Shown: positions 1 to 63,480, numbered from the stretch's first letter. The stretch is DNA of 64,000 bases from Candidatus Moraniibacteriota bacterium (GCA_049303795.1 JBAQNM010000005.1:222381-286380); one strand, 5' to 3'. A program made the numbers and translations. Notes: generated from the sequence alone by a model not told the origin.

Positions 1-202
<202 letters not shown>

Positions 203-6041: not shown

Positions 6042-6062
6042 ACTTCTATTATAACTATTGAG

Positions 6063-7217: not shown

Positions 7218-7238
7218 TATGATTAAATATTAAGAAGT

Positions 7239-7859: not shown

Positions 7860-7874
7860 ATATTATTTAGCTTC

Positions 7875-8315: not shown

Positions 8316-8323
8316 ATATTTTT

Positions 8324-9454: not shown

Positions 9455-9462
9455 AAGCTAAA

Positions 9463-10711: not shown

Positions 10712-10752
10712 ATATTTTTTTATAAGTTATTAACAAATTATTTTTATTTTTC

Positions 10753-11466: not shown

Positions 11467-11481
11467 AAATTGACAATTAAA

Positions 11482-45447: not shown

Positions 45448-45521
45448 TTTTCAATGTGGGCGATCGAGAACTCGAATCTCGGACCTCGTCATTATCAGTG
45501 ACGCGCTCTAACCAACTGAGC
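45448..45521 (-). tRNA. tRNA-Ile (anticodon GAT)
   Basis: Reverse complement reads GGGCGATTAGCTCAGTTGGTTAGAGCGCGTCACTGATAATGACGAGGTCCGAGATTCGAGTTCTCGATCGCCCA: clean cloverleaf with anticodon loop CTGATAA. Confidence 0.85.
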
Positions 45522-45559
45522 TAATCGCCCGTAAATTATCAATATTATATATATTCCTG

Positions 45560-45632
45560 TGGACCCTATCGGGCTCGAACCGATCACCCCCTGCTTGCAA
45601 AGCAGGTGCTCTACCAAATGAGCTAAGGGCCC
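45560..45632 (-). tRNA. tRNA-Ala (anticodon TGC)
   Basis: Reverse complement reads GGGCCCTTAGCTCATTTGGTAGAGCACCTGCTTTGCAAGCAGGGGGTGATCGGTTCGAGCCCGATAGGGTCCA with G3:U70. Confidence 0.85.
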
Positions 45633-45767: not shown

Positions 45768-48347
45768 TTATTTAAAACTCTTAACTATGCCCTGAAATTC
45801 ATCTCCTTTTTCTTCAAAATTCTTCCAAAGACTATAGCTTGGAGAAGCCATTGAAAGTAAGCATATTTTTCCAATCTTCGTATTCAAAAAAGCAAAATTG
45901 ACAGCTTCTTTCATGTTTTTTGTATGTATTGTTGTATATTTTTTGTTAGATTTTTGAAGAAGTATTTTTTCAATCTCTGTGCCGCTATCTGGAAAAAAAA
46001 CAATATTTCTTATTTTAGATTTATCAATTTCAATCGCCAAGCCAGAAAAATCATACCCTCGATTAAGCCCCCCTAAAAAAATCGTGTCCACATCGGAAAG
46101 TGTTTTGATTGCTTCAATAGTAGCCTCAGGAATTGTTGCGTTAGCATCATCATAAAATTTTATTCCCTTGAATTCTCCCACAAATTCCAAGCGATGCGGA
46201 AGATTTTTAAAACTTTCGACGCCTTTTTTAATTATCCTCTTTGGAATTTTTAGAATATTAGCAACAGCAATCGCCGCTTTGGCATTTTCCATATTATGCG
46301 CACCCAAAAGCGAAGCTTTTATATTTGCTAAATTAATTTTACTAAAATCATCTGTATTTGTTTTTTTAGCCCATTTTTTTAGCTCTTTATTTTTTCCATT
46401 ATATACAAAATGATCTTCGCGATTTTGAAAATTAATAATATTTTTTTTCGCTGCATAATATTTTTCAACACTGCCATGATAATTCATATGCTCAGGAAAA
46501 AGATTTATTACAACAGAAATATGTGGAGAGTATTTCAGATCATCTAGTTGATAGCTAGAAAGCTCTATGATAAAAATTTCATTCTCATCAATCGGTTTTA
46601 ATAAAACTTCCAACATCGGACTGCCAATGTTACCAATCAAGCGCACCTTCTTCCCGGCCTCTTTTAGAATGGCATAAATCAAAGAGGCTGTCGTGCTTTT
46701 CCCCTTACTTCCGGTCACTCCAATCGTAATATTTTTTATTTGCGAGAAAAAGATGTTAGTCGCCGTAGTATAAGGAATTTTAACCAAATTTTTATTTATT
46801 CCCGGTGATTTTATTGCAAAATCGCAATCTTCCTGTCTTTTTAGGTAATTCTTGTCTAACTTTTGGTCAGCAATAATATATTCTTTTTTTGGATAAAGTT
46901 TTTTTAAAAATTTTAAACTAGCCCTACCTTCAAGCCCATAGCCTAAGATCAATATTTTTCGCCTATCTTCAAAATCATCCAACTCTATACTTGTTTTTTT
47001 AATCATAGCGAGAAATTTTTCAGGAATATTGTTTTCTTCTGAAAAGCCTAATAATTTTTTACTTAAACCTATTTGATCTATTTTTTCAAATAATCCCACT
47101 TTTTCAAAAAATTTAATAACCCCAGCATCTCCAAATTCATTTTTTAAATAAGTCTTTCTTAAGGCCAACTTCATTTCTTCTGCTGTTCCCACACACTCAA
47201 AGGGTTTTATTCTTTTTAAACCTAATAATTCTTCAAATGTTGGCAATAATTTTTTATCCTCAAACAAACTCTTACCAAAAATATCCAACAATTCTTTTTT
47301 AGAAAGATAAGCAGAAAGCATCGTGAAAACAAATACACATTTAGGACAGTGTCCACACCATCTCTTGCCTACTAGATCATCTTTTATTTTAAAATTGGCG
47401 TTACAGCTAGAAAAAGTTTTAAAATATTTTTTATATTTGGAAAAAATCTCCACGATTTTGATTTCACTCAAAGGACGTAGAATTGAAAAGTATAAAACAT
47501 CAGTAGCTATATATTCTTTGACATAATTAGAAAACATTTTTTCAGCCAAAAAAGATTTACTCCACTGATGATTAACCCATCTGCCTAAATATTCTATATT
47601 ACCCTGGCTGGCACTATTTTCGTTAGCAGAAATGATATAACGATAATCATAGATAACAGCTGTAAAAAGACCGATAAATGCCCATTGCAGAGAAACTGGC
47701 ACATGCCCATTATATGCGTCTGGCTTATTTCTGAATTCTAATAATTTTTTATCTAATTCTCTTTTTACCACTATCTTTTTTCCGCCCACCAATGCGGCAA
47801 CTTCTTTTTGAATCTCGGCTTCATTAACAGAAAAAACAGTAAAATCTTTCGCAATTTTTTTCAAGAGTTCCATCGCTACAATAGAATCTTTGCCTCCACC
47901 ATTCATCACAAGCAATCGATCCTGCATTTTTGTTTTTATTGCTTTAGGTTTGTATTTATCATCATAAGAAAAATTAACTAGCCCACGATAATCGATTTTA
48001 TTTTTATAAAAAAATTCACCCATCCCCTCGGTATAAACTAAATTCCAAAATTCAGCCTGCTGCTTAGAAAGTTTAATATTATTTAAAATTATTTTTGAGG
48101 GACAATAAATCTTCCAATAGCTTAAGCCTAAAACCAAATGCAAACCGTCTAATATATTTTTTTGCAAATTTTCATCGAGCTTATTTTCCAAAAAGCCTTT
48201 TTTTGGAAAATATAAGGTTTCACAAAACATATATTTATCTGTTCCTTTTTTCAATCCATAATCAAAAGACAAAGTTGCCTTTGTCTTATCAATTCTATAG
48301 CCTAAAAACTCAAAAATTCCTCCGGTTTGCTTCATATTTTTACCCAT
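45768..48347 (-). CDS. bifunctional fusion: N-terminal PP-loop ATP-pyrophosphatase-like domain (MurL-like?) + C-terminal Mur ligase (MurD-type UDP-MurNAc-L-Ala:Glu ligase)
   Basis: N-terminal about 450 aa with SGGxDS-type PP-loop (LVMNGGGKDSIVA) and a CGHCPKC cysteine cluster. C-terminal about 400 aa with a Mur ligase P-loop GVTGSKGKSTTASL and MurD-like layout (ILILGYGLEGRA.. N-terminal Rossmann). Confidence 0.6.
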   Translation of the reverse strand: MGKNMKQTGGIFEFLGYRIDKTKATLSFDYGLKKGTDKYMFCETLYFPKKGFLENKLDENLQKNILDGLHLVLGLSYWKIYCPSKIILNNIKLSKQQAEFWNLVYTEGMGEFFYKNKIDYRGLVNFSYDDKYKPKAIKTKMQDRLLVMNGGGKDSIVAMELLKKIAKDFTVFSVNEAEIQKEVAALVGGKKIVVKRELDKKLLEFRNKPDAYNGHVPVSLQWAFIGLFTAVIYDYRYIISANENSASQGNIEYLGRWVNHQWSKSFLAEKMFSNYVKEYIATDVLYFSILRPLSEIKIVEIFSKYKKYFKTFSSCNANFKIKDDLVGKRWCGHCPKCVFVFTMLSAYLSKKELLDIFGKSLFEDKKLLPTFEELLGLKRIKPFECVGTAEEMKLALRKTYLKNEFGDAGVIKFFEKVGLFEKIDQIGLSKKLLGFSEENNIPEKFLAMIKKTSIELDDFEDRRKILILGYGLEGRASLKFLKKLYPKKEYIIADQKLDKNYLKRQEDCDFAIKSPGINKNLVKIPYTTATNIFFSQIKNITIGVTGSKGKSTTASLIYAILKEAGKKVRLIGNIGSPMLEVLLKPIDENEIFIIELSSYQLDDLKYSPHISVVINLFPEHMNYHGSVEKYYAAKKNIINFQNREDHFVYNGKNKELKKWAKKTNTDDFSKINLANIKASLLGAHNMENAKAAIAVANILKIPKRIIKKGVESFKNLPHRLEFVGEFKGIKFYDDANATIPEATIEAIKTLSDVDTIFLGGLNRGYDFSGLAIEIDKSKIRNIVFFPDSGTEIEKILLQKSNKKYTTIHTKNMKEAVNFAFLNTKIGKICLLSMASPSYSLWKNFEEKGDEFQGIVKSFK

Positions 48348-48353
48348 TATCTG

Positions 48354-49925
48354 CTAGCGTTTAAGCACTTGTCCATTGCGATTACCATTATATTTCCCAT
48401 CTCTAACCACAATCTCGCCATTAACCACCATAAGCTCAAGTCCTTCGGAATATTGATAAGGATTCTCTGTATTTGCTGGACTGGCAATTTTATCCTGATC
48501 AAGCACAATTATATCAGCAAAATTGCCTTTTTTCAATAGTCCACGTTTTTTCAAATTAAATTTAGAAGCTGGGCCTCCAGTCATCTTATTAATTGCCTCC
48601 TCCCAGCTTAACAGTTTTTCCTTTCGGACATATTTTTCCAACACTTTGATAAATGATCCAAAATTACGCGGATGAACTTTCTCTCCTGTCTTGGAATGAA
48701 AAATATCATATCCAGCTCCATTAGTTGCTACAAAAGACAAAGAATTTCTCAAAGCCTTTCTAATATTTTCCTCACTTAAAACTTCAATTGAGGTGATTAC
48801 CATTCCCTCAGATACAATCAAAATATCAATAACCGTGTCCTCAACTGTTTTTTCCTGACTCTTGGCAATTTCCGCGACACTATGTCTTGTCAAAGTTTTA
48901 TTAAGTGGAGATATAGCAATATTAATTTTGGAATAATCAAATTCTGACGCACGCATTTCTTCAATTACTTTCGCGCGAATAACTGGATCTTTTAAGCGAT
49001 GAAGCATTATCTTTTTTCCACCTTCAGAAACCCAAGCTGGTAAAAAAGAATAAAGCACCGATCCAGTCGAGGTGTAAGGATAAACATCAAATGTGACGTC
49101 TATACCCTCTTCCCTTGCCTGTGTAATCAATTTTAAAGCCTTATCCATTTTTGACCAATTTTTTTCGCCAATAACTTTCAAATGTGATATCTGTAATTTC
49201 ACCCCAGATTCTTTAGCAATTTTTAATGCCTCCTTAATTGCCTGCAAAAACTCTTCTTGCTCTGATCTAATATGCGTTGCATAAACGCCGTCATATTTTT
49301 TAACAATCTTAGCTAGTGCCAAAAGTTCCTCATAGGGAGCCAACCTCGCATGTGAATAAATTAATCCCGTAGACATTCCCAAGGCACCTTCTTTCATAGA
49401 TCTCTCTAGATTTTTTTCGAGCAATTCTGTTTCCTCAGGCGAAAGACTACGGACAAGATCACCAATAATACCTCTTCTTAGTGTTGCATGACCAATTAAC
49501 GTTCCAAAATTGGGTGATAATTTTTTTTCAGAAAGGATGGTAAATAAATCTTTTAAACGTAGCCAGTTGATATTTATTTTTTTAACCTCAACCCATTTTT
49601 GAATTGCATCGATCGTTTCTGGCGAAGCTAGTGGTGCAAGAGATGTTCCACAATTTCCCCCAATAATTGTTGTGATACCCTGATAAATTAAACTTTCCAA
49701 ATGTGGTGTTAAAAAAATTCGCCAATATGTATCACTATGATTATTAACATCGATAAAGCCAGGACAAACTATTTTTCCATTAACATCAATTTCTACGGAT
49801 GCCCTCTCATCACGCAATTCACCAATACTTGAAATTAAATCATCCTTAATTCCAATATCAGCACGATAGGCTGCTTCACCTGATCCGTCAATAATTATTC
49901 CGTTTTTAATAATGATATCGTACAT
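48354..49925 (-). CDS. D-aminoacylase-family amidohydrolase (N-acyl-D-amino-acid deacylase-like); start at internal Met MYDIIIKNG
   Basis: ..IIKNGIIIDGSG.. and the metal-binding GFIDVNNHSD motif typical of N-acyl-D-amino acid deacylases / D-aminoacylase. Confidence 0.7.
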   Translation of the reverse strand: MYDIIIKNGIIIDGSGEAAYRADIGIKDDLISSIGELRDERASVEIDVNGKIVCPGFIDVNNHSDTYWRIFLTPHLESLIYQGITTIIGGNCGTSLAPLASPETIDAIQKWVEVKKININWLRLKDLFTILSEKKLSPNFGTLIGHATLRRGIIGDLVRSLSPEETELLEKNLERSMKEGALGMSTGLIYSHARLAPYEELLALAKIVKKYDGVYATHIRSEQEEFLQAIKEALKIAKESGVKLQISHLKVIGEKNWSKMDKALKLITQAREEGIDVTFDVYPYTSTGSVLYSFLPAWVSEGGKKIMLHRLKDPVIRAKVIEEMRASEFDYSKINIAISPLNKTLTRHSVAEIAKSQEKTVEDTVIDILIVSEGMVITSIEVLSEENIRKALRNSLSFVATNGAGYDIFHSKTGEKVHPRNFGSFIKVLEKYVRKEKLLSWEEAINKMTGGPASKFNLKKRGLLKKGNFADIIVLDQDKIASPANTENPYQYSEGLELMVVNGEIVVRDGKYNGNRNGQVLKR

Positions 49926-51634: not shown

Positions 51635-52933
51635 TTAATGCACTGCACATGAGATACAAGGATCGTATGCGCGAATAAACGCTCTTAGTTTTTTCTCCTG
51701 CTCCTTGCTTTTTAATTTCAAAATTTGCGGAATATACTCAGCAATATCATCTTCTAAGTTTGAGAGAAATTGAGCAGTAGGCGTAATAATATTTACGTTA
51801 CGAATATAACCTCTATGATCAACCTCCACGTGATAATAAAGCGTGCCACGAGGTGCTTCCACTGCTGCCACGCCAAAACCTTCTCTAATTTCATATTTCT
51901 TAGTTAAAACTTCATTCAAATCCAAATTTAGAAGCTCCATTGTTAATTTTCTCGTTTCTTCAATAGCATGAATTACTTCAACCATCTGAGCTAAGATATT
52001 ATGAAAAGGGTTATAATCAGGAAATTTCCAGTCAAGCTCATTTAAATATTTCCCCGCATTATTTCTCAGTTTAATTTTATTATTATTGATTCTGGCAATC
52101 GCGCCTACCATATAACTCACACCTTTATGCTCAACCCGCTTAATCATCTCTTTTTGTTTTTGCAATTCTAGAAAATTAGCTTCAAATTTTTCAACGGGAA
52201 TATGTAGACCGCGATTAGAAATAATATCACCATCATAAATTGCGTATTCACCTTTTTTCGACAAACAGACATATTCTGTTTCACGATAAAAATCAGGAAC
52301 CTTTATTCTCTTAAAGAACCCTCCCAATTCCAAAGCAATTTGCAAAATATTATCAGAATCTTGTACTATTTTTTTCAATGCTTCGCGATCAGGCGCCTTT
52401 TTAAACCCACCCACTTCATTGGTTAGCGGATGTACCACTCGCCCACCGATTACTTTCACAAGTTCCATGCCATATTCGCGAATCTTAATTGCTTTTTTTG
52501 CTTCTTCAGGATGCTCTTTGACTAATTCGATATCATTATCCATATCCAAAAAATCAGCCAGTGATAAAAAAAATAAATGCAAGGCATGTGAATGAATGAG
52601 CTGCGCATATTCCAAAATTGTGCGCAATTTTTCAGTCTCAGGAGAAACCGAAACACCCATCGCATTTTCCAAGGCTTTAATTGAAGTCAAATTATGCACA
52701 ACCGGACAAATTCCACAAATACGTTGAGCAACGAGTGGCATATCTTGATATTCTCGCCCAATCAAGACGCCTTCAATCAAACGAATTCCCTCTTGCACTT
52801 GAAGTTTTGCCGATTTAACATCACCAGAGATGACACTTGCCATAAAACCAGTGTGCCCCTCCATCTTCGCAATGTGATTTATTTTTATATTCATAATGAA
52901 ATTATAACATATTATACAAAAAAATTCTAACAA
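51635..52933 (-). CDS. [NiFe]-hydrogenase large subunit (group 3-like)
   Basis: L1 motif RICGICPVVH and C-terminal L2 motif DPCISCAVH. Confidence 0.85.
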   Translation of the reverse strand: MLEFFCIICYNFIMNIKINHIAKMEGHTGFMASVISGDVKSAKLQVQEGIRLIEGVLIGREYQDMPLVAQRICGICPVVHNLTSIKALENAMGVSVSPETEKLRTILEYAQLIHSHALHLFFLSLADFLDMDNDIELVKEHPEEAKKAIKIREYGMELVKVIGGRVVHPLTNEVGGFKKAPDREALKKIVQDSDNILQIALELGGFFKRIKVPDFYRETEYVCLSKKGEYAIYDGDIISNRGLHIPVEKFEANFLELQKQKEMIKRVEHKGVSYMVGAIARINNNKIKLRNNAGKYLNELDWKFPDYNPFHNILAQMVEVIHAIEETRKLTMELLNLDLNEVLTKKYEIREGFGVAAVEAPRGTLYYHVEVDHRGYIRNVNIITPTAQFLSNLEDDIAEYIPQILKLKSKEQEKKLRAFIRAYDPCISCAVH

Positions 52934-53001: not shown

Positions 53002-53955
53002 TCATTTTATTTTGCAAACTCGTTCCAGCTCAGCAATATCCTCATTAGAGAAAGTAAGCTTTTCCATATTTTGATCACCCATCAAATAATACATAATTGA
53101 TTTTGGATTCTCAACATGTCCCATCCCCAAGCTATGCCCCAATTCATGAATAAGTGTCATGCGTAAATCAGCAACTTGCCTAAATTGATAAATATTAATT
53201 TCCGTCCCAGCATTAACGCCCTTTTCAAACTCCTGAGCTGTTCCATATTTTTCTTTGTAGGTTGATACGTTTGAGTTATAATCATCAACCACTTTTTTTT
53301 CTTGCGAAGCTAAGGCATTAGCTTTTTTGGCAAGTTCATTAACTTCAGCCTGCTCTTTTTGTAATTTATCATAAAAAATATCTAGATCTTTTCTTTCTTT
53401 TTGCAAATCATCCAAATCATTTTGAGATGTTTTATCGCTTTCATTCCATTTTTCAACATCTTTATTATATTGTTTCAATTGATTTTCATATTTAGCTACA
53501 CTAGAGTTATAACTTGCCAAGGCTTTATTATAGCTAATACTTAAAGCATCGTATTGATTATTAATCTTATTTTGTGATAATTTAAGTTGTTCTAGATTTG
53601 TTTCCAGCTCGTCTGTTTCATTTGACTGAATTTGCCTATCATCAAAAATCAAATTAATTTTAAAGCTGGCTTTAGGATTATAGAAAAATACCTTTCTTTC
53701 AAGCTGACCACTCCAAATATTCTGCGCCTCATCAATAATTTTCAAAAAAGAAGCTTCGTCAATGTTAAAGCGTGGGTCAATAATGCCTATTGAATATTCT
53801 ATTGGTTTCGAACACGGTAAACCTAATCCTGTAAATTCTTGGATTTTATTGCCTATCTTTACAGCTTGTTTATTTACCTCAACTTTGTTTTTAAAAATTA
53901 TTCCCCAAACAGAAAAAAGTAGAATAATTATTAGATATTGAAAAAATTTTTTCAT
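53002..53955 (-). CDS. membrane-anchored zinc metalloprotease (matrixin/M10-like HExxHxxGxxH) with a coiled-coil region
   Basis: HELGHSLGMGH zinc-binding motif plus Met-turn (SIMYY); N-terminal TM helix. Confidence 0.6.
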   Translation of the reverse strand: MKKFFQYLIIILLFSVWGIIFKNKVEVNKQAVKIGNKIQEFTGLGLPCSKPIEYSIGIIDPRFNIDEASFLKIIDEAQNIWSGQLERKVFFYNPKASFKINLIFDDRQIQSNETDELETNLEQLKLSQNKINNQYDALSISYNKALASYNSSVAKYENQLKQYNKDVEKWNESDKTSQNDLDDLQKERKDLDIFYDKLQKEQAEVNELAKKANALASQEKKVVDDYNSNVSTYKEKYGTAQEFEKGVNAGTEINIYQFRQVADLRMTLIHELGHSLGMGHVENPKSIMYYLMGDQNMEKLTFSNEDIAELERVCKIK

Positions 53956-53978: not shown

Positions 53979-54866
53979 TTACTTTTTAACTCCCCTCTCT
54001 CGCGCCTCCAAATCATCGCGCAAACCAAAAATTTCAGTCATATTTTGAAATTGCTCATCACTCATCATATTTTTTAGCATTGCACGCATAGCAGGAACAT
54101 TCCCTGTCGGTCGTAGTCCACGACAACCTTGACATTGCGCACGAGAACTTGGACAAGTTGCACCACAACCACCCAAAATCATTGGCCCAAAGCATGGCTT
54201 TTTATCCAATAATAAGCAACGATTTCCTGCTCTCTTGCATTCCACGCAAACGGGGGAATCAGGAATGGTGGGAACATTTCCTTTAAGTAGCTCTGGAGCG
54301 TATTGCAAAAATTCCTCACCATTAATTGGACAACCTGGAAACACAAAATCTACCTTAACAAAATTATCAATCTCGCGGATTTCCGGATTATTAATGCCAT
54401 GGATATATTTATAAACATGCTTGATCGTGCTAACTCCCTCGTGATAATTTTTAATCTCTGGCACACCACCCATTGCCGCACAATTTCCCAATGCCGCCAA
54501 CATTTTTGAACGTTTCCTTGCTTGTTTCAATGTTTTAATATTTTCTTCTGTCACTGGATTTCCTTCTATCAAAACTAAATCCAAAAGACCACCGTCATCT
54601 TCTTCGTCTTCAATCAAACGAAAATCCACTAACTCCACTGTCTTAGCAAAATCCAAAAAACGGGTGCCAAGATCCAACAATACAAATTGACAGCCCTCAC
54701 AAGAAGTAAGACTAATAATAGCCACCCGCGGTTTTTTAAATACTATTTTCTTTTTTGTTACTTTTTTAATTTTAACCTTTTCAGTAGCTGGTTTTATTTT
54801 AGTCACTTTTTTCACTTTTGGTTTTTTAACACTTGTCTTTTTTTCAGACTTTTTTTGAATTTCCAT
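53979..54866 (-). CDS. [NiFe]-hydrogenase small subunit (NuoB-like fold) with a Lys-rich N-terminal extension
   Basis: ..AIISLTSCEGCQFVLLDLG.. proximal-cluster Cys ligands (CxxC..C..GCP) and additional Cys clusters for the medial and distal FeS clusters. Confidence 0.65.
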   Translation of the reverse strand: MEIQKKSEKKTSVKKPKVKKVTKIKPATEKVKIKKVTKKKIVFKKPRVAIISLTSCEGCQFVLLDLGTRFLDFAKTVELVDFRLIEDEEDDGGLLDLVLIEGNPVTEENIKTLKQARKRSKMLAALGNCAAMGGVPEIKNYHEGVSTIKHVYKYIHGINNPEIREIDNFVKVDFVFPGCPINGEEFLQYAPELLKGNVPTIPDSPVCVECKRAGNRCLLLDKKPCFGPMILGGCGATCPSSRAQCQGCRGLRPTGNVPAMRAMLKNMMSDEQFQNMTEIFGLRDDLEARERGVKK

Positions 54867-55050: not shown

Positions 55051-55995
55051 CTACTGACATTTATTTACGCTGCAAACACCATTTGTTTTTACAGATGCAC
55101 AATCCCTGGTTGATGTTCCAATAGTTTTATCGCTCTTGCAATAATATTCTACAATAGAATTACCGCTACAATGATCATAGGCTGGACTAATTTGCCCTCC
55201 TATAGTTGGAGAAAAACTAACATTACCACCAACTAATGGAGTATTTCCACCATCAGTATCAGAACAACCTACACATTTATTTGTACTACAAGCGCCTCCA
55301 GACAAAATACTACCGCAATCCTTCGTATATGTTCCAAGGGTTTTATCGCTCTTGCAATAATATTCTACAATAGAATTACCGCTACAATGATCGTAGGCTG
55401 GACTAATTTGTCCTCCTATAGTTGGAGAAAAACTGGTATTTCCTCCAACCAATGGCTTGTCTCCACCATCAGTTTCAGAACAACTTCTCGTAGGAGTTGG
55501 TGAAGGCTTAGGCGTTGGTATTGGAGTTGGAGTAATTTTCGGCGTTGTTGTTGGAGTTGGAGTAGGAATCTTATCATAAGTAGGAGAAACAGAAACCCAC
55601 ACAGGCATAGAATACTGCCCAGCAGAATCTTTAACACGTAAAGTTATCCAAACTAAACTTCCTGGGTTAAATGTTTTGGTGCAAGTTTTTCCAGTGCAAA
55701 TAACAGGGCCAGAACCACATTCTCCTTGAGAATTAAACCATTCATATACATATCCAGTGCCTGAACCACCAGTTGCTCTTCCTTTAAAAGTCACCGGCAC
55801 GCCATATTGAACCTTTGCCCCATTTGCTGGATAATCAATATAAGCCGTAGGTCTCGGTAGATTAGGATTGTTTTTTAAGTATCTACCATAAACACCAGCC
55901 ATTATTCCACCAACACTAATCACTGCAATAGCAATTGCCACAATAGTGCCAGTTTTTACTTTTGTTTTAGTTTTTGTTGTTGTCGCTTGTTTCAT
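55051..55995 (-). CDS. secreted Cys-rich protein with a PT linker and a tandemly duplicated about 70-aa Cys-rich module
   Basis: Signal/TM helix; TPTPTTTPKITPTPIPTPKPSPTPT linker; two near-identical modules (SxTDGG..PLVGGN.SFSPTIGGQISPAYDHCSGNSIVEYYCKSDKT.GT.T.DC). Confidence 0.5.
   Translation of the reverse strand: MKQATTTKTKTKVKTGTIVAIAIAVISVGGIMAGVYGRYLKNNPNLPRPTAYIDYPANGAKVQYGVPVTFKGRATGGSGTGYVYEWFNSQGECGSGPVICTGKTCTKTFNPGSLVWITLRVKDSAGQYSMPVWVSVSPTYDKIPTPTPTTTPKITPTPIPTPKPSPTPTRSCSETDGGDKPLVGGNTSFSPTIGGQISPAYDHCSGNSIVEYYCKSDKTLGTYTKDCGSILSGGACSTNKCVGCSDTDGGNTPLVGGNVSFSPTIGGQISPAYDHCSGNSIVEYYCKSDKTIGTSTRDCASVKTNGVCSVNKCQ
55120..55500. repeat. tandem direct repeat (about 216 bp x about 1.8, >90% identical) inside CDS 55051..55995
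   Basis: ttttatcgctcttgcaataatattctacaatagaattaccgctacaatgatc(a/g)taggctggactaatttg(c/t)cctcctatagttggagaaaaact... occurs twice. Confidence 0.8.
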
Positions 55996-57189: not shown

Positions 57190-58305
57190 ATGAAAATAAC
57201 AACCTCCATAAAACATACTAACAAAAAGAATATTCTTGCTCTCGGCGCCGAATCCGCTGGAAATTTTTCGGTTTTTAAGAATGGTGAAATTTATTTCTCT
57301 GAAGATTTTGGCGACTTATTAGAAGAAACTAATTGGGAGAATTATCAGATTTCAGTTTTAACTTACTTAAAAACTAACCAGATTAAGCCAGAAATAATTC
57401 TAACTGATCTTCATCCCCTATACAAAACTACGACTTGGGGAAAAGAACTAGCTAAGAAATATCACGCAAAACTTCTTCCAATTCAGCATCATCATGCTCA
57501 TATTTTTTCTGTTATTGGAGATAAAATGCTTTATTCTAAGAGCTACAAGTCAAAAACTACAAACTATGGCATTGCCATGGATGGTACTGGATATGGTACA
57601 GATGAAAAGATTTGGGGCGGAGAAGTATTTAAAGTTAAGGGAAAAGAAATTCTAAGAATCGGACATTTGGAAAATCAAATTATACTTGGTGGAGATTTAG
57701 CTGTCAAAGAGCCAGCTAGAATGTTAATTGGAGTGTTAAGTAAAATATTAAGCAACAAAGAAATCTACCCTTTCATCAGAAAATATTATACCAGAAATCA
57801 ATTTGAATTATTATACAATCAGCTCTCGCAAAATTTTAACTGCCAAGAAACTTCTAGCACTGGAAGAATTTTAGACGCTGTTTCTTTACTTTTAGGTTTT
57901 TGTAATAATGAAAGAAAACACAAGCACGAACCAATTAATTTGCTAGAAAAAAATTCAACTGTTCCCTATTCTGATTTAATACCAAAAATAATTTTTGATG
58001 AAAAAGAAAAAATATATATTTTACAAACTACTCCACTTTTTAAATATTTAATTAAAAATATAAATAAAGACAAGAAAAAATTAGCTGCCACGGCGCAACT
58101 TTACATTGCTAAAGGTTTATACGAAATTATAAAATTGAAAACTAAAAGCCAGAAACCAGAAACTTTTTTTATTTCTGGTGGTATATCAAATAATAAAATA
58201 ATTTCTTCTTTCTTGGAGTCCAAAGGCGCATATGTAAATAAAAAAATCCAACGTGGTGACGCCGGACTTTCTTTTGGGCAAGTTGTTAAATACTTATTAA
58301 ATTAG
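57190..58305 (+). CDS. HypF C-terminal Kae1/TsaD-like carbamoyltransferase domain as a stand-alone protein
   Basis: ..LALGAESAGNF.., ..DLHPLY.., ..LPIQHHHAHIFSV.., ..AMDGTGYGTDEKIWGGEV.. match the HypF C-terminal domain; no acylphosphatase, Zn-finger or YrdC domains. Confidence 0.6.
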   Translation: MKITTSIKHTNKKNILALGAESAGNFSVFKNGEIYFSEDFGDLLEETNWENYQISVLTYLKTNQIKPEIILTDLHPLYKTTTWGKELAKKYHAKLLPIQHHHAHIFSVIGDKMLYSKSYKSKTTNYGIAMDGTGYGTDEKIWGGEVFKVKGKEILRIGHLENQIILGGDLAVKEPARMLIGVLSKILSNKEIYPFIRKYYTRNQFELLYNQLSQNFNCQETSSTGRILDAVSLLLGFCNNERKHKHEPINLLEKNSTVPYSDLIPKIIFDEKEKIYILQTTPLFKYLIKNINKDKKKLAATAQLYIAKGLYEIIKLKTKSQKPETFFISGGISNNKIISSFLESKGAYVNKKIQRGDAGLSFGQVVKYLLN

Positions 58306-59316
58306 TCAGCATATCCTCGGAATCAGCTTCCCTCTAGGCACTTCGATTTTTTTGACAGAGCCAATTTTAGTTTTCAACCAAACGCCCCTGCCCGCCTCAT
58401 TACGCGAAGCATTATGGGTGGGTCTTTGCACTTCCCCAATAATCTTAGCGCTTTTATTAAATTTTTGAAGAATTTGAATAACTTTCTTAGAATCTTTTTT
58501 TGACACCGTTGCTACAAATCTACCTTCGGACGGAAAAGAAAAAACGTCAATGCCAAGTAGTTCTGAAATAGCAATTGTTTCTTTTTTAAATGACAAATTT
58601 TTTTCTTCCAAAACAAATTTGGTTTTGGATTTTTCTGCCATTTCATTGAGCACCGCCGCCATACCACCGCGTGTTGGATCTTTGCAAGAAGTTAGATATT
58701 TTGAAACTGCTTGAATTTCACAAATTAACGGTTGGCAATCGCTTTTTATTTTTGTTTGATAATTAAATCGTTTCGCCAAAAGCGCCACCGCATGTTCGCC
58801 AAGATCTCCAGAAACTATTATATCATCCCCTGCTTTTGCACCGGCATTGGAAATTATATTAGAAGCCAGCCCCACTCCCGAAGTAGTGATTTCAATTTTG
58901 TCGATCTTGCCTTTTTCCGTTACTTTAGTGTCTCCCGTCACAATTGGCACGCCCGTTTCTTTAGAAATCTTCTGAATTGAATTTATTATTTTTTCTAAAT
59001 CACTTTCCAAAAATCCTTCTTCAATTACAATACTCAAAGACAATCCAATTGGTTTGGCGCCCATCACTGACAAATCATTCAGTGTTCCACAAATCGCAAT
59101 TTTTCCAATATCGCCTCCGGGAAAAAACAACGGATCAACAATAAAAGCATCCGTCGTGAAAACTAATTTTTCTTTTCCCAAATCAAAAACTGCTCCGTCA
59201 TCAGCCGTGTTTTTCCATTTTCCTTTTACATTCAAAATGCTTCTTATGTTTCCAATAAGTTCTTCGGATTTTTTTCCTCCTCCGCCCATTTCAAGCTCGA
59301 TTATTTTGTTTTTCAT
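58306..59316 (-). CDS. hypE: hydrogenase maturation protein HypE (start at internal Met MKNKIIELEMGGGG)
   Basis: PurM-like fold and C-terminal PRIC motif. Confidence 0.85.
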   Translation of the reverse strand: MKNKIIELEMGGGGKKSEELIGNIRSILNVKGKWKNTADDGAVFDLGKEKLVFTTDAFIVDPLFFPGGDIGKIAICGTLNDLSVMGAKPIGLSLSIVIEEGFLESDLEKIINSIQKISKETGVPIVTGDTKVTEKGKIDKIEITTSGVGLASNIISNAGAKAGDDIIVSGDLGEHAVALLAKRFNYQTKIKSDCQPLICEIQAVSKYLTSCKDPTRGGMAAVLNEMAEKSKTKFVLEEKNLSFKKETIAISELLGIDVFSFPSEGRFVATVSKKDSKKVIQILQKFNKSAKIIGEVQRPTHNASRNEAGRGVWLKTKIGSVKKIEVPRGKLIPRIC

Positions 59317-59320
59317 AAAG

Positions 59321-60355
59321 TTATTCGGTGAAACGAAAATTAATACTACAACTCCCCTCCCTCGAAACCATGCACGCGCCTTGCGGATTTTCCGGTGTGC
59401 AAACTTTTCCAAAAAGTGGACAATCTTTTGATTCAATTAATCCTTGCAAAACCTCACCACAACGACAAACACTTTTTTTAGGTTTGATTTCTTTTTTTAT
59501 TTTTACAATCATCTCTCGATGAATAAATTCCGCGTCTTGCAATTGATATTTTTTTCGAATTTTTAGTCCGGAATTTTTGATTTCTCCCAAACCTCGCCAA
59601 GAAGCATTTCTAACTTCAAAAACTTCGGAAATTAAATCTAACGCTTTTTTGTTTCCATCCTTTTTCACTAGTCTCGTATATTCATTTTCAACTTTTTTTT
59701 CTCCAGCAATTATTTGCTTCAAAAGCATTTCAATCGCCAGAAGAACATCTTCTGCGCTAAATCCAGCTACCACCTGTGGGATTGGAAATTTTTCATAGAC
59801 TTCTGTGCCGATAATTGCACTGACGTGTCCTGGATTAATAAATCCGTCGATTTTGATTTTATTATTTTTCAGTAGCGCCTCCATTGCTGGCGGAAAAAGT
59901 TTGTGCGACGAAAAAACTGTAAGCTTATTTTGAATTCCCCAAGCCGTCATCACAGTTGTTGTTTCAAAGCCAATTCCCCAAAAAACTAAATTGGGAATTT
60001 TTTTGGAAAGCTCCAGCGCTTCAGTTACATCATAAACAATATGCACTTGTGCGCCCTCTTGCCTGGCATTTTCCAAGCTTCCCAAACTCCCTGGAATATT
60101 AGTGGCGTCGCCATAGCAAGCAATCGGAATACCTGAAAGTGCCAGGCCAGTTACCACATCAATTTCACTTTGATCAGTCACACAAACCGGACAACCCGGA
60201 CCAGTAATCAGTTTTATATTTTCCGGCAAAATATTTTTTATTCCGTGCTTGGCAATCGCCTCACTGTGCGTTCCGCAAAGTTCCATAAAACGAAGTGGCC
60301 GATTTATTTTTTCAGCTTTAGTTTGAATATTTTTTAATATTTTTTTATAATCCAT
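59321..60355 (-). CDS. hypD: hydrogenase maturation protein HypD
   Basis: CGTH, GPGCPVC, and C-terminal FeS Cys motifs. Confidence 0.85.
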   Translation of the reverse strand: MDYKKILKNIQTKAEKINRPLRFMELCGTHSEAIAKHGIKNILPENIKLITGPGCPVCVTDQSEIDVVTGLALSGIPIACYGDATNIPGSLGSLENARQEGAQVHIVYDVTEALELSKKIPNLVFWGIGFETTTVMTAWGIQNKLTVFSSHKLFPPAMEALLKNNKIKIDGFINPGHVSAIIGTEVYEKFPIPQVVAGFSAEDVLLAIEMLLKQIIAGEKKVENEYTRLVKKDGNKKALDLISEVFEVRNASWRGLGEIKNSGLKIRKKYQLQDAEFIHREMIVKIKKEIKPKKSVCRCGEVLQGLIESKDCPLFGKVCTPENPQGACMVSREGSCSINFRFTE

Positions 60356-60542
60356 ATTCAGATAGTTTTTCAACATAATCCTTCTCCATCTTTTCAATCG
60401 CAAAACCGGCATGCACCATCACATAATCACCAACCTTAACATCAACGATGCTTATATTTATTTCTTTTTGCACGCCCTGAAACTCAACTGTTGCCAGATG
60501 GTTATTGATTTTTATGATTTTTCCTGGAATTGCTAGGCACAT
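60345..60542 (-). CDS. hypC: hydrogenase maturation protein HypC
   Basis: N-terminal MCLAIPGK. Confidence 0.8.
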   Translation of the reverse strand: MCLAIPGKIIKINNHLATVEFQGVQKEINISIVDVKVGDYVMVHAGFAIEKMEKDYVEKLSEYGL

Positions 60543-60543
60543 A

Positions 60544-60664
60544 ATTCAGAACCACAGATTATCACATGAATTCACATGATTTCACTGATTATATTATAAT
60601 TAATTATTTTGACTTTAAAATTCAGTGCTTTCAGGATAATCAGTGTTAATCAGTGGTTCTGAAT
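60544..60664. promoter_or_regulatory. about 120-bp imperfect palindrome filling the whole hoxU-hypC intergenic space, built from 10-bp-periodic TGATTAnCAC-like units in inverted orientation
   Basis: attcagaaccac (60544-55) with gtggttctgaat (60653-64) as perfect 12-bp termini. Inside, agattatcac / atgaattcac / atgatttcac on the left mirror aggataatca / gtgttaatca on the right. Confidence 0.55.
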
Positions 60665-61714
60665 TTTCCCTATTTTTATTTTCTCCTTATCCCTCGCTAA
60701 CCTCGCCACTTCGCGCTCACTAAGCACATAATCTAAATACTTGTCTATATTTTTCTTTTTGTCTATTTTGGAAGAAATAAAAAATACAACAATATCTTTC
60801 GGATTTATTTTTTCACGCTTAGCATATTCCGTTTTAACATTTTCGATAACTTCGTCTTCCGATTTTTCCTTTTCTAATTTTATAATCTTCTCGAAACCCA
60901 AATCTGAAAGCAACTTATTTAAATTCTTTTCCGGTTTTATTTTTTGTGTTTGCGCTAAAACTTTTTCCTCTATTTCAAAATCCAAAACCGCCACCGAAAA
61001 CTTTTTGAGATCATCCAGAATCTCTACTATTTTTCTATAATCATTCTGATCAGTAAGCGCTGCAGTGGGACATGCTCGCACACAACGCCCACAAAAACTA
61101 CAATCCAGAACTTCCTCATAGGGCGTCCCAACAACGACCGCGCCTCCTCGCAGATTAAACCCAAACTTTTTTTCCGGACAAATATTAATACATCTTCGAC
61201 ATTCAATACAAAGTTCGCTATTCCTGGAAATACACGGATTTTCATTTTCCACAACTACCCGCGACCAATTATCACGAATCAAGCCCAACTCTTCTTGCCC
61301 GGTTATTTCTCCTTTCCTCGGAATGAAATGAAAATTTTCAATTTTATATTCCAACGCCAAATTTTGCAATTCGCACATTTGATTTTTCTTGCAAGTCGCG
61401 CATTTTCCAGCGTGATCTGCCCAAAGCAGTTCTAGATTTATTCTTCTGGCTTTGTTTATATCTTCACTTTCCGTAATCACTTCCATCCCGTCTTTAACTT
61501 TCAAGATGCAGGAAGGCTGTAAACTCGTACGGACAGGTTTTAAACCTGTCCCTCCACTTCTTATTCCCACCAAACACAAGCGGCAAACCGCTCCGCGCAA
61601 AAGATCTTCAAAAGCACAAAGTGTGGGAATTCTAATTTCATTTTTTCGACACACATCCAAAACAGACTCCCCGAGCTTAGCTGTATATTTTTTATTGTTG
61701 ATTTTTATTTGCAT
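60650..61714 (-). CDS. HoxU/NuoG-N-terminal-like diaphorase iron-sulfur subunit (2Fe-2S + 4Fe-4S clusters)
   Basis: 2Fe-2S ferredoxin Cys pattern (C..C..C..C), a His/Cys 4Fe-4S motif (CATCKKNQMC) and two CxxCxxCxxxCP ferredoxin motifs. Confidence 0.7.
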   Translation of the reverse strand: MQIKINNKKYTAKLGESVLDVCRKNEIRIPTLCAFEDLLRGAVCRLCLVGIRSGGTGLKPVRTSLQPSCILKVKDGMEVITESEDINKARRINLELLWADHAGKCATCKKNQMCELQNLALEYKIENFHFIPRKGEITGQEELGLIRDNWSRVVVENENPCISRNSELCIECRRCINICPEKKFGFNLRGGAVVVGTPYEEVLDCSFCGRCVRACPTAALTDQNDYRKIVEILDDLKKFSVAVLDFEIEEKVLAQTQKIKPEKNLNKLLSDLGFEKIIKLEKEKSEDEVIENVKTEYAKREKINPKDIVVFFISSKIDKKKNIDKYLDYVLSEREVARLARDKEKIKIGKIQNH

Positions 61715-61724
61715 AAATAAAAAT

Positions 61725-62912
61725 TTAAAATATTTCTAATTTTTCCACCGCGTCTCGAAATGCTGTTGCCGCAAACTTCCCCAAAGGACAAAAAGTCGTA
61801 TTTTCCAATGTCCATAAAATATCATTGACTGCTATTTTATCACGATCAGAAATTTTCCCATCCTGCAAACGCTGTGCGATTTCATCGAGACGAAAAGTTC
61901 CTTCCCGACACGGCACACACTTTCCGCAAGATTCCCGCCGAAAAAAACCAGACCAAGACAATAATAGCTCGTAAATATTAACTGTTTTATCTACCACTAA
62001 AATTGCTCCGGATCCAGTCACAGGAACATCTAATTCTTTTTCTAGAAATAATTTACCTGACGCTCCCCCAACTTGAGCAAACCAAAATTCTTTTCCTCTT
62101 TGCACGCCTCCGCCCAATTCCTCTATCGCCTCTCTTATTGTAATATTCATCGATGCCTCAAAAACTCCCTGCTTTTTTACTGCGCCACCAAGTATAAATA
62201 GCTTAGGATTAATTTTAGCATATTTTTTTCCACCATTTTTAATAATCCAGGGAATATTAGCAATTGTTTCGGCATTATTCACGACTGTCGGCTTACCAAA
62301 AAGACCACATTCTGTTGGATATGGCGGACGAATCTTCGGCTCTCCCCGATTACCTTCGATAGAATTTATCAATGCCGTTTCTTCACCGCAGATATAAGCG
62401 CCAGCTCCAGAAAAAATTTCCACTTCCAAGGAATATTCGGCGTCTAATATTTTATTTCCCAAAAACTTATTTTCATGCGCTTGAATGATTGCCTGCTCTA
62501 AAATTATTTTAGCTTTTTCATAATTACCATTAAGATAGATGTAGGCTTTTTTTGCGCCGATCGTAAGCGCAGAAATGATTATTCCTTCCAAAATTAAATG
62601 AGGATTATTTTCTGCAAGCATTCTGTCTTTATATGTTCCCGGTTCTGATTCATCCAGATTACAAATAAAATATTTTTCCTTGCTTTTTTGTGCCATAGCT
62701 AACTCCCATTTTGCACCTGTTGAAAAACCCGCACCACCCCTTCCGCAAAGTCCAGAAAGTTTTATTTCCTCCAAGGCTTTTTGTGAATTAATTTTCGAAA
62801 TAAACTTCTTAAAGGCTTCATATCCGCCAACCTTTAAATAGTCCTCAATTTTCAAAGGATTAATTTTGCCCCAATGTTCAGTTATTATTTTTATATTATC
62901 CATGTTTGTCAT
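61725..62912 (-). CDS. HoxF/NuoF-like NAD(P)H-binding flavoprotein subunit (start probably ATG at 62912 or 62903, not the track's GTG at 62927)
   Basis: GLCGRGGAGFSTGAKW (FMN/NADH site) and ESCGKCVPCREG 4Fe-4S motif. Confidence 0.85.
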   Translation of the reverse strand: MTNMDNIKIITEHWGKINPLKIEDYLKVGGYEAFKKFISKINSQKALEEIKLSGLCGRGGAGFSTGAKWELAMAQKSKEKYFICNLDESEPGTYKDRMLAENNPHLILEGIIISALTIGAKKAYIYLNGNYEKAKIILEQAIIQAHENKFLGNKILDAEYSLEVEIFSGAGAYICGEETALINSIEGNRGEPKIRPPYPTECGLFGKPTVVNNAETIANIPWIIKNGGKKYAKINPKLFILGGAVKKQGVFEASMNITIREAIEELGGGVQRGKEFWFAQVGGASGKLFLEKELDVPVTGSGAILVVDKTVNIYELLLSWSGFFRRESCGKCVPCREGTFRLDEIAQRLQDGKISDRDKIAVNDILWTLENTTFCPLGKFAATAFRDAVEKLEIF

Positions 62913-63015
62913 TCCCGTCCCGAGCACTCGGGACGGGAATCTAGTATGAAAATTTAAAATTTATGACCGGATTCCCGTTGGAATTTATCCTCGTGAAACA
63001 GGGGCGAGAATGACA
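62907..63015. mobile_element. MITE-like GC-rich intergenic element with about 17-24-bp imperfect terminal inverted repeats and an internal perfect 14-bp hairpin
   Basis: Termini tgtcattcccgtcccgag and ctcgtgaaacaggggcgagaatgaca (reverse complement tgtcattctcgcccctg..). Internal attcccgtcccgag-ca-ctcgggacgggaat (62911-40) and gattcccg repeat. Sits exactly between hoxE and hoxF. Confidence 0.4.
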
Positions 63016-63480
63016 CTATAAATACCCCTCTAAAATGCTATGGATTGAATTTTTAGTCACTCTCTCAAAAAACTTTTCATTTATCACAACTACTGGTCCT
63101 TCTCCGCAACGCCCCAGACAACTGATTATTTCCAGTTTTACCTTCGGATTAAATTCATCTCCGGCTTTAATTCTAAAATAATTTTCAATTTCACGAACAA
63201 TGCTATTTGAATCACTTAGAACACAATGCGTTCCAGAGCAAACTTTGATTACCAAATTAGCTGTTTTTTCTGTTTTAATTAAATCGTAAAAACTAGCTGT
63301 TTCATAAATTTCAGATAACGGCAGAGAAAAATAATTTGCCACTTTTTGCATATCCTTCTTGGAAATATAACTAAAAACTTTGTTAATTTCTTTTAGCGTT
63401 GCAACTATGTTTTTTTTCTCTGGATCAAAATGCAATAGAATTTTTTCAACTGTTTTATGCATAGAACTAGGTCTTGTCAT
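63016..63480 (-). CDS. HoxE/NuoE-like thioredoxin-fold 2Fe-2S subunit
   Basis: CSGTHC .. CLGRCGEGP 2Fe-2S motif. Confidence 0.75.
   Translation of the reverse strand: MTRPSSMHKTVEKILLHFDPEKKNIVATLKEINKVFSYISKKDMQKVANYFSLPLSEIYETASFYDLIKTEKTANLVIKVCSGTHCVLSDSNSIVREIENYFRIKAGDEFNPKVKLEIISCLGRCGEGPVVVINEKFFERVTKNSIHSILEGYL

Follow-up and report, generated by a model that had tools for sequence, protein, structure and literature searches.

The 859-aa murL::murD2 ORF in a 64-kb stretch of DNA from a Candidatus Moraniibacteriota bacterium (the window, i.e., the whole stretch that was analysed) very probably encodes, judging by sequence comparisons, a bifunctional enzyme that serves early peptidoglycan synthesis by the alternative (MurD2/MurL) route. 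It is an architectural variant of an already known system. In Xanthomonas oryzae the alternative pathway of D-Glu incorporation comprises MurL, XOO_1319, and MurD2, XOO_1320 (Feng et al. 2017, reviewed in PMC8788868 and PMC5808125); the original prediction had wrongly assigned MurL to XOO_1320. Its main proposal, a single-polypeptide equivalent of MurL and MurD2 that would provide D-Glu independently of a racemase, is supported, as the MurL model is matched end to end, the MurD cutoff is exceeded, the specificity residues are of the MurD2 type, and a close relative carries murD and murI in exactly the corresponding slot. As in the Xanthomonas pair, both families are recognised by HMMs, murL and murD2 are linked (adjacent there), and the same two activities would be expected. 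The differences are the single polypeptide of 859 aa with the order MurL-MurD2 and the host, a Patescibacteria (Moraniibacteriota) bacterium, whereas the hosts named in the reviews (PMC8788868, PMC5808125) are limited to certain Gamma- and Alphaproteobacteria and a few rare actinobacteria.

All the motifs that had been reported for the fused ORF, PP-loop-like, Cys-cluster and P-loop, were located in the ORF listing and by motif position (Table 1); the first lies within the sequence LVMNGGGKDS, and WCGHCPKC occupies aa 330-337. DNA 100% identical over 12,164 bp and encoding the same 859-aa protein is present in the NCBI assembly GCA_049305975.1, and the precomputed Pfam domains of that identical protein are MurL_N, MurL_epimerase_C, Mur_ligase_M and a faint Mur_ligase_C.

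Table 1. Location of the murL::murD2 ORF, its domains and motifs, and the neighbouring gene in the window.
Feature	Position	Strand	Basis or remark
murL::murD2 fused ORF	45768..48347	minus	859 aa, ATG start (ORF listing)
MurL domain, aa 7-451	46995..48329	minus	NCBIfam NF041275
PP-loop-like motif GGGKDS, aa 150-155	47883..47900	minus	
Cys cluster SSC(315)N ... C331-x2-C334-x2-C337	47337..47411	minus	
Junction, aa 447-463 (AMIKKTSIELDDFEDRR)	46959..47009	minus	frame-joining extra G at 46990
MurD2-type (by sequence) Mur ligase domain, aa 464-856	45780..46958	minus	TIGR01087
ATP P-loop GVTGSKGKSTT, aa 543-553	46689..46721	minus	E. coli K115 equivalent conserved
FPEHMN, Glu619 = E. coli MurD Asp182 / X. 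oryzae MurD2 Glu197	46482..46499	minus	alignment to E. coli MurD
GGLNRG, Arg763 = E. coli Lys348 / MurD2 Arg358	46056..46073	minus	alignment to E. coli MurD
ASPSYS, Pro836 + Tyr838 = E. coli Ala414 + Leu416 (MurD2 Pro433 + Phe435)	45831..45848	minus	
Replaced cassette, without DNA similarity to the close relative L168	45765..48354	minus	blastn of L168 against the window
D-aminoacylase-family amidohydrolase homologue, altered active site	48354..49925	minus	523 aa from ATG; upstream, 6-nt gap; context only

The strongest new evidence for the MurL-MurD2 reading is the exact replacement of murD and murI. A close Moraniibacteriota relative (locus L168) has its flanks in common with the window from the hydrogenase genes to dnaE, and its amidohydrolase is 90% identical to that of the window. 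In blastn, L168 18-6517 corresponds to window 54892-48355 at 80.5% identity, and the similarity returns, at 98%, where L168 8761 meets window 45764. In the interval that runs from the amidohydrolase stop to the tRNA/dnaE flank, L168 encodes a canonical pair, a 476-aa MurD and a 277-aa Asp_Glu_race protein (murI) in which both catalytic Cys motifs are present; the same arrangement is repeated at this chromosomal slot in L173. murL::murD2 is a self-contained cassette occupying the place of murD and murI in close relatives, which indicates that the two D-Glu routes have been exchanged in situ. A Moraniibacteriota MurI query gave no match, either within the 64-kb window or in the 2.04 Mb that surround 162 murL loci, and no racemase, D-amino-acid aminotransferase or second MurD was revealed among the 45 larger ORFs of the window that were scanned against Pfam.

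The N-terminal half, about 450 aa, matches the MurL model NF041275 over its full length (E 1.4e-106, model positions 5-445 of 447). Its score of 356.7 bits is half of the NCBI equivalog cutoff, 700 bits, of a model built for Xanthomonadales; the protein belongs to the same family, with functional equivalence not certified by the NCBI rule. In an alignment of 32 family sequences 55 columns are invariant, and the window protein keeps every one of them; the AF2 model of this half has a pLDDT of 92.4. That MurL is a PP-loop enzyme was the admitted weak link of the original prediction, and the modelling is in agreement with it: the MurL core is predicted to have a PP-loop, QueC-like organisation, with a Rossmann-like alpha/beta fold as in QueC, TilS and NAD synthetase. 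GGGKDS follows the predicted strand 142-148, as fits a PP-loop; Gly replaces the first Ser of SGGxDS, and the motif is nearly fully conserved across the MurL family, in which C315, C331, C334 and C337 are invariant. The MurL half shares with the QueC-type PP-loop ATP pyrophosphatases (B. subtilis QueC, 3BL5, and Cap9, 9NTO) the glycine-rich xGGxDS loop and the C...C-x2-C-x2-C cluster; for MurL, too, the chemistry that has been proposed is an AMP-forming carboxylate activation. By analogy with QueC, and given the fold match, the four cysteines may form a QueC-like zinc site. Unlike the QueC-type enzymes, with which sequence identity is just 15-16% (3BL5, 9NTO), MurL has Gly for the first Ser, is extended by additional domains at both termini (455 aa versus about 190), and is reported to bring about epimerisation rather than amidation or nitrile formation.

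The C-terminal half exceeds the curated MurD threshold, scoring 264.2 bits against TIGR01087 (murD; cutoff 211.95, model positions 1-440 of 441), and its closest solved structure is S. agalactiae MurD (3LK7, E 5e-54). In the alignment the equivalents of E. coli MurD E157, H183 and K198 are conserved as well as that of K115. The ligase-half counterparts of E. coli D182, K348, A414, L416 and K319 are E, R, P, Y and N, respectively; the Glu/Arg/Pro/aromatic positions agree with those of Xanthomonas MurD2, as mapped via E. coli MurD and not via the X. oryzae sequence itself, and Tyr838 in place of Phe435 is a conservative change. According to a review of the pathway, the use of L-Glu by MurD2 is governed by Glu197 and Arg358, the E197D/R358K exchange leading to D-Glu, and the Pro433/Phe435 positions alone do not alter the specificity. 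Among 155 MurL-linked ligases, Arg occupies the 348 position in all, Pro the 414 position in 151, Tyr or Phe the 416 position in 152, and Glu the 182 position in 132, with Asp in the other 23; Lys at the K319 position occurs in none. In contrast to the window ligase, MurD of L168 and L173 (murI-linked, from sister Moranbacteria) and of L175 has D, K and A at 182, 348 and 414, and in the sister genomes it contains a recognisable MurD-like_N domain. These three proteins are 33-34% identical to the window ligase half; the MurL-linked ligases, in a within-clade comparison, are 60-70% identical to it. Residues of the MurD2 type are not fully diagnostic, since Arg at the 348 position is also present in streptococcal D-Glu MurD and some MurL-linked ligases have Asp at 182.

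The chance is very slim that the ligase half adds D-Glu like any ordinary MurD while the MurL-like domain has another job, e.g., QueC-style adenylation of another carboxylate, with D-Glu coming from a racemase elsewhere or from a host. Such a situation would accord with the passing of the canonical MurD equivalog by the ligase half, with the position of the MurL half under its own cutoff, and with the active glutamate racemase of some CPR bacteria, e.g., Saccharimonas aalborgensis (cited in PMC11974145), and the genome is viewed on this question through the 64-kb window; against it stand the whole-length match to the MurL model, the E/R/P/aromatic pattern of MurD2 as opposed to D/K/A in the murI-linked MurD of the sister genomes, the precise substitution of the cassette for murD and murI, and the link between MurL and the ligase, preserved in about 160 loci and by fusions in either order.

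The murL-murD2 fusion is common in Patescibacteria. The best 149 representative clusters (50% identity) include 94 with a MurL-MurD fusion and 10 with the opposite arrangement, MurD-MurL; of 80 genome loci about half carry fused genes, and of 80 metagenome loci 77 do. Overall, murL is fused with or adjoins a gene for a MurD-type ligase in 157 of 162 related loci, and in the split relatives murL and murD remain neighbours, the two genes overlapping by ATGA in L001 and L002. One such fused protein bears the UniProt label 'Multifunctional fusion protein', and a fusion of MurL with MurD2 is not described in the literature searched. Fusions of consecutive or linked Mur-pathway enzymes have precedents in MurC/Ddl (NF011171) and MurE/MurF (NF008896), both models matching the fused ORF weakly via the shared Mur-ligase core; they differ from it in their partner domains, neither containing an epimerase. 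Of 126 evaluable murL loci, 67 have ftsW immediately downstream, and several have mraY immediately upstream, so the murL-ligase unit takes the position of murD within the dcw cluster, a context that suggests a housekeeping role.

The fused gene is one nucleotide away from the two-gene arrangement. In the nearest split relative, L001, the end of murL and the start of murD2 overlap (ATGA) at the point of the junction; compared with it, the window has one base more and a TAG, now out of frame, at the position of the old stop. An alternative is that the fusion is not a true single polypeptide, either because of a one-base assembly error or because translation from an in-frame TTG just past the junction yields some or most of the ligase as a separate protein; the function of the pathway would be the same. 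The junction differs from that of L001 by the single extra G at 46990: without it the sequence would read ...ACA ATA TAG, with the stop precisely at the usual end of a stand-alone MurL, and the TTG lies in the ligase frame two bases after that would-be stop. One Roizmanbacteria cluster at 90% identity contains fused members of 865 aa together with split members of 448 + 417 aa, which implies either that the two states flip easily or that mis-assembly is frequent. Nevertheless, this explanation is quite unlikely. The extra base lies outside any homopolymer, and the nearby A7 run has the same base count as the matching stretch of L001; the ORF is reproduced in the NCBI assembly on identical DNA; the ancestral ATG at the junction is now ATA; and, in a by-eye reading of the sequence, no strong ribosome-binding site is seen ahead of the TTG. 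The fused state is also that of the majority of relatives, which shows that the fusion is viable.

The gene next to murL::murD2, predicted to encode a homologue of the N-acyl-D-amino-acid deacylase family, proved to be one: its product, with the motif GFIDVNNHSD at aa 56-65, matches Pfam Amidohydro_3 (84.6 bits) and the solved D-aminoacylase of Alcaligenes faecalis (1M7J, E 9e-70). This enzyme and the Bordetella N-acyl-D-glutamate deacylase (3GIP, E 9e-65) are clear homologues, their Cys96, His220 and His250 having equivalents here; carbohydrate de-N-acetylases (9KB1, 9KB3) belong to the same family. The metal-binding/catalytic set of this enzyme is His67, His69, Cys96, His220, His250 and Asp366 (1M7J numbering), and it is incomplete in the window protein. 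His63, Cys92, His218 and His248 are kept, but Asn61 stands at the His67 position of 1M7J (HMMER alignment) and Asn402 at the inferred Asp366 position, placed by the strand-8 motif and the D/N alternation among orthologues, as the PDB alignments fall short there. In the window protein and those of 18 further loci, His67 is replaced by Asn in 14 of 19, as is the inferred Asp366, and Cys96 and His220 are also lost in five. Such changes argue against ordinary D-aminoacylase catalysis.

The suggestion that this gene belongs to the same D-amino-acid module was not supported, as it adjoins murL in just 18 of the 162 loci, a set restricted to a single clade in which it keeps company with gapA. That it is a functional third member, perhaps as a hydrolase acting on N-acyl-D-Glu or on muropeptides, or as a partner in proofreading or binding, is unlikely, even though it lies on the same strand as the fused ORF across the 6-nt gap, keeps its adjacency to murL/murD in the 18 loci down to 41-47% amidohydrolase identity, precedes murD in L168, L173 and L175, even where murD is of the canonical type, and comes from a family that includes the N-acyl-D-glutamate deacylase. 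It is absent from the side of murL in about 89% of the loci, is followed by secE-nusG instead of murD in the Moranbacteria locus L174, and shows the substitutions described above. Its linkage with gapA, also upstream in 16 of the 18 loci, and with the hydrogenase/hypA block is the pattern of plain clade synteny in a compact co-directional genome.

In the proposed route the ligase domain would add L-glutamate, not D-glutamate, to UDP-MurNAc-L-Ala, with ATP converted to ADP + Pi via an acyl phosphate. The MurL domain, with its predicted PP-loop, QueC-like core and four-Cys cluster, would then adenylate the alpha-carboxylate of the terminal L-Glu, ATP giving AMP; this chemistry is taken by analogy from the Xanthomonas enzymes, and the predicted fold is compatible with AMP-forming adenylation. 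We infer the stereochemistry of the substrate, as well as channelling between the two domains, if any. Epimerisation would take place on the nucleotide-dipeptide, unlike in the canonical MurD and MurI pair, where free D-Glu is made first. If this route holds, both free D-Glu and a glutamate racemase would be dispensable to the cell.

Judged by sequence, the window, part of a Moraniibacteriota genome, contains a cassette in which MurL and MurD2 of the already known alternative route to D-Glu are fused. It is encoded by a single ORF with an ATG start, in which all the motifs quoted in the original prediction of a PP-loop/MurL-like domain joined to a Mur ligase could be located (see the table). 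In the NCBIfam scan, the MurL and murD models are each matched end to end by the fused protein; the score of its MurL half is lower than the equivalog cutoff of 700 bits, which was set for Xanthomonadales. The Pfam copy used for scanning the window is without a model for the N-terminal half, and the precomputed Pfam record of the exact 859-aa protein lists MurL_N and MurL_epimerase_C. The same protein is present in the NCBI assembly GCA_049305975.1, the DNA being 100% identical across 12,164 bp; the GC content of the window is about 36%.

Coordinates of the features discussed, and blastn blocks shared with the related locus L168
Feature	Window position (strand)	Size, residues or content	L168 position	Identity
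murL::murD2	45768..48347 (-)	859 aa; MurL half aa 7-451, ligase half aa 464-856
GGGKDS		aa 150-155 of fused protein
CGHCPKC		aa 331-337 of fused protein
GVTGSKGKSTT		aa 543-553 of fused protein
Extra G at the junction	46990
Amidohydrolase	48354..49925 (-)	523 aa
tRNA-Ala(TGC), tRNA-Ile(GAT)	45456-45632 (-)
NiFe-hydrogenase large subunit	51635-52933
Peptidase_M10 (matrixin-like)	53002-53955
NiFe-hydrogenase small subunit	53979-54866
Pro/Thr-rich, Cys-rich protein	55051-55995 (-)	314 aa
Its DNA self-match	55316-55399			92%
Hydrogenase maturation/diaphorase-like cluster	57190-64000	hypD, hypE-like AIRS protein, NuoE/F/G-like Fe-S/FMN subunits
HypF homologue	57190-58305 (+)	371 aa
Sigma70/alpha C-terminal domain protein	20601-21761 (-)	386 aa; Sigma70 region 4 aa 218-268, RNA polymerase alpha C-terminal domain aa 303-359
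blastn block, upstream flank	54892-48355		18-6517	80.5%
blastn block, slot	48354-45765		6518-8760	no similarity
blastn block	45764-45706		8761-8819	98%
blastn block, tRNAs	45632-45514		8808-8927	96%
blastn block, dnaE	45542-42001		8994-12534	89%

In Xanthomonas oryzae MurL is XOO_1319, the original prediction having swapped the locus numbers by giving XOO_1320 as MurL. XOO_1319 catalyses a one-way conversion to the D-Glu form in which ATP is used and AMP formed (PMC8788868), and MurL "lacks known conserved domains" according to both reviews (PMC8788868; PMC5808125). The PP-loop-fold relatives given for the MurL half include the nitrile synthetase ArtA, LarE, argininosuccinate synthetase, TtuA, TilS, ThiI, and NAD synthetase; among the residues invariant in the MurL family are GGGxxS, from the PP-loop-like GGGKDS, and C315, C331, C334, and C337. 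The arrangement of these four cysteines presumably resembles the QueC zinc site. What had been called the weak link of the prediction, MurL as a PP-loop enzyme, therefore probably holds. A PP-loop core in the MurL half would fit the need for an AMP-forming adenylation of a carboxylate, and its assignment is a useful addition; no solved MurL structure was found by a sequence search of the PDB.

The ligase half is of the MurD type, as predicted, since it exceeds the cutoff of TIGR01087 (264 bits versus 212, model positions 1-440 of 441). Asp182, Lys348, Ala414, and Leu416 of E. coli MurD correspond to Glu197, Arg358, Pro433, and Phe435 of MurD2; the E197D/R358K exchange turns MurD2 to D-Glu, and with K319T E. 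coli MurD accepts L-Glu (PMC8788868). At the positions of E. coli D182/K319/K348/A414/L416 the window ligase reads E/N/R/P/Y (Glu619, Asn736, Arg763, Pro836, and Tyr838). Among 155 MurL-linked ligases the first of these positions is occupied by E (132) or D (23), the second by Lys in none, and the remaining three by R (155/155), P (151/155), and Y or F (152/155). The MurD proteins of sister genomes, those of L168 and L173, located beside murI, and that of L175, read D/A/K/A/F and are 33-34% identical to the window ligase half, versus 60-70% for the MurL-linked ligases. Arg at position 348 is found in the streptococcal D-Glu MurD too. This contrast of residues and identity within the clade is the best available sequence evidence from which we infer L-Glu specificity of the window ligase.

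A related locus, L168 (ENA ERZ27247824), found through a search with the amidohydrolase encoded next to the fused gene, carries an amidohydrolase 90% identical to that of the window, and its gene order is the same on both sides of the slot: upstream, the hydrogenase small subunit, Peptidase_M10, NiFe large subunit, desulfoferrodoxin, hypA, gapA, and amidohydrolase genes, and downstream, dnaE on the opposite strand. L168 has two genes between the amidohydrolase gene and dnaE, one for a MurD of 476 aa that includes MurD-like_N and one for an Asp_Glu_race protein of 277 aa, in which both Cys motifs needed for catalysis (CNTAS and GCTHY) are present. The breakpoints between the two sequences are the stop codon of the amidohydrolase gene and that of the fused gene. 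The same slot is occupied by murD and murI in L173 (79%), and by an 840-aa fusion in L169 and L170 (81%). That one slot contains the classical pair in some close relatives and the fused gene in others is direct comparative evidence, by which murL::murD2 can be considered a substitute for murD and murI; this in-situ exchange is a useful addition as well. A Moraniibacteriota MurI probe gave no match in the window, nor in the 2.04 Mb around 162 murL loci; a tblastn search with E. coli MurI, a distant probe, gave none either, and Pfam scans covering 45 larger ORFs of the window revealed no racemase, D-amino-acid aminotransferase, or second MurD. The main reading of the original prediction, a single-polypeptide MurL-MurD2, appears sound in view of the end-to-end model matches, the specificity residues, and the murD-murI slot of the relatives.

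Several other features of the window deserve mention. The two tRNA genes are direct neighbours, located shortly downstream of the fused gene in a stretch 96-98% identical to L168; such a pair is usual in rRNA spacers, and no rRNA match was found anywhere in the 64-kb window. The Peptidase_M10 gene lies between the two hydrogenase subunit genes, an arrangement kept in several Moranbacteria contigs (L168, L171, L173, and L175), while L174 has a PDDEXK_3 gene in its place. In the HypF homologue only the two Kae1-like C-terminal domains were matched; it apparently lacks the N-terminal domains of HypF. The 386-aa protein combines two domains in an unusual pairing. The 314-aa protein has no Pfam match, and a segment of about 60 aa is duplicated within it (...DGG..PLVGGN.SFSPTIGGQISPAYDHCSGNSIVEYYCKSDKT...).

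The junction of the two halves (...IPEKFLAMIKKTSIELDDFEDRRKILILGYG) aligns with the two-gene junction of L001, the locus with the closest MurL relative (63% identity), and of L002, both of which have murL and murD2 as two genes overlapping at ATGA. Compared with L001, the window has one extra base and ATA in place of ATG; without the extra G the frame stops at a TAG precisely at the point where stand-alone MurL proteins end, and two bases past this TAG position there is a TTG in frame with the ligase. An assembly error at the junction is an unlikely source of the fusion, as the extra base lies outside any homopolymer, the ORF is present likewise in the NCBI assembly, and the fused state is common among relatives. 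A homopolymer error was considered in particular, since the junction adjoins a run of seven A residues and a run of six would restore the stop; it was downgraded, the A-run region being of the same length in L001, and the extra G is located three bases beyond it. The exact or 1-nt-variable junction pattern had no match in metagenome contigs.

One ancient fusion common to the window and to the L017-type genes of other Moraniibacteriota was rejected. The junction of the latter is 12 residues shorter, and therefore the window fusion is a separate event, probably a recent one. A further argument comes from a sliding comparison, in which the gene is a mosaic: aa 1 to ~500, which comprise MurL, the junction, and the beginning of the ligase, have their nearest match in the split L001 type (50-80% identity), and aa ~510-859 in the fused L017, L019, and L020 type (62-92%). 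This pattern suggests recombination inside murD2.

The amidohydrolase, encoded directly upstream of the fused gene with a 6-nt gap and containing GFIDVNNHSD, shares 100% identity with a partial protein filed by NCBI under Candidatus Moraniibacteriota, which places the window in a Patescibacteria (CPR) genome. The amidohydrolase is a genuine homologue of the D-aminoacylase of A. faecalis (1M7J, E 9e-70) and of the N-acyl-D-glutamate deacylase 3GIP (E 9e-65); 9KB1 and 9KB3, carbohydrate de-N-acetylases with recently solved structures, are equally close. By direct alignment its HxH motif reads NxH, with Asn61 at His67 (1M7J numbering), and Cys92, His218, and His248 are retained as the equivalents of Cys96, His220, and His250; the strand-8 Asp366 would correspond to Asn402, the PDB alignments of the C-terminal 197 aa ending before this segment. 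In the window protein and 18 orthologues (L017, L018, L020, L023, L041, L055, L075, L086-L089, L109, L112, L120, L138, L151, L154, and L160) Asn occupies the His67 position in 14 of 19 and the presumed Asp366 position in 14 of 19, and five of the 19 are also without the Cys96 and His220 equivalents (GGNSGAS, VYATYLRD). The clade looks like one drifting to a non-catalytic or altered-chemistry protein. The gene adjoins murL in 18 of 162 loci, all of one clade, with gapA upstream too in 16 of the 18; in other Moranbacteria it is followed by murD and murI (L168 and L173), murD alone (L175), or secE-nusG (L174). The adjacency is most simply read as synteny inherited within a compact genome of co-directional genes. 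The proposed membership of the D-aminoacylase in the same D-amino-acid module is not supported, in view of its one-clade adjacency, gapA company, altered active site, and other neighbours elsewhere, and the same holds for a functional link with the ligase step. We consider quite improbable a combined reading for Moraniibacteriota in which the slot between the conserved hydrogenase-gapA-amidohydrolase block and dnaE is a recombination exchange point for complete D-Glu cassettes, murD+murI versus murL::murD2, and in which the catalytically degenerate D-aminoacylase homologue always bordering it has been recruited, without hydrolytic function, as a partner of whichever ligase is its neighbour, for instance to bind D-Glu or a muropeptide, or to proofread.

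A MurL-domain search gave more than 6,800 clusters, with named matches from Levybacteria, Roizmanbacteria, and other Patescibacteria; the best 120 of them are stand-alone proteins of ~405-490 aa. The best 149 matches of a whole-protein search among 1.84 billion representatives comprise 94 MurL-MurD fusions, 10 proteins of the reverse order MurD-MurL (clusters P0155, P0160, and eight more), 37 MurL-only, and eight MurD-only proteins; one fused cluster includes the Roizmanbacteria protein PJC30237.1 (UniProt A0A2M8EWJ8, "Multifunctional fusion protein"). Of 80 species-level genome loci, roughly half have the fused gene, including those of Morani-, Staskawicz-, Uhr-, Falkow-, and Peregrinibacteria, and in the others murL is directly followed by murD; 77 of 80 metagenome loci are fused. 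The fused architecture is thus not rare. The scan of genome contigs for MurL loci yielded Patescibacteria-like loci only. ftsW lies directly downstream in 67 of 126 evaluable loci and mraY directly upstream in several; because of these neighbours the murL-murD unit can be placed in the murD slot of the dcw cluster, as the housekeeping ligase.

Two protein clusters show further forms. P0179, from Bacteroidales MAGs, contains MurL-MurD fusions outside Patescibacteria, 1246-1247 aa long, with ~360 extra C-terminal residues. P0121 (Candidatus Roizmanbacteria, 90% identity; PJC30237.1, PJE61811.1, and MDP4010753.1/MDP4010754.1) comprises an 865-aa fused version and separate 448-aa and 417-aa versions; either the two states alternate even between very close relatives, or frame errors are present in some of the assemblies.

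The literature describes the MurD2/MurL route as limited to a small number of genera and recommends it as a target for narrow-spectrum antibiotics. While the pathway is known, its fused form is present in public databases under incomplete names and, as far as searched, undescribed in publications. No mention of the pathway in CPR/Patescibacteria, or of the fusion, was found in the searchable literature, where the sole related item was an active MurI in Saccharimonas, cited in PMC11974145. Public records name the fused proteins plain "D-glutamate ligase", probably with the wrong substrate stereochemistry. With the fusion, the MurL mechanism could be studied by biochemical and structural methods on a compact construct of one gene. 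The occurrence of fusions in both domain orders is "Rosetta stone" evidence, independent of the rest, for the two activities working together, and the near-identical flanks with murD+murI or murL::murD2 represent a natural experiment in which the two routes behave as interchangeable modules. The results indicate that the MurD2/MurL route is widespread in Patescibacteria, often as one fused gene in the murD slot of the division/cell-wall cluster.
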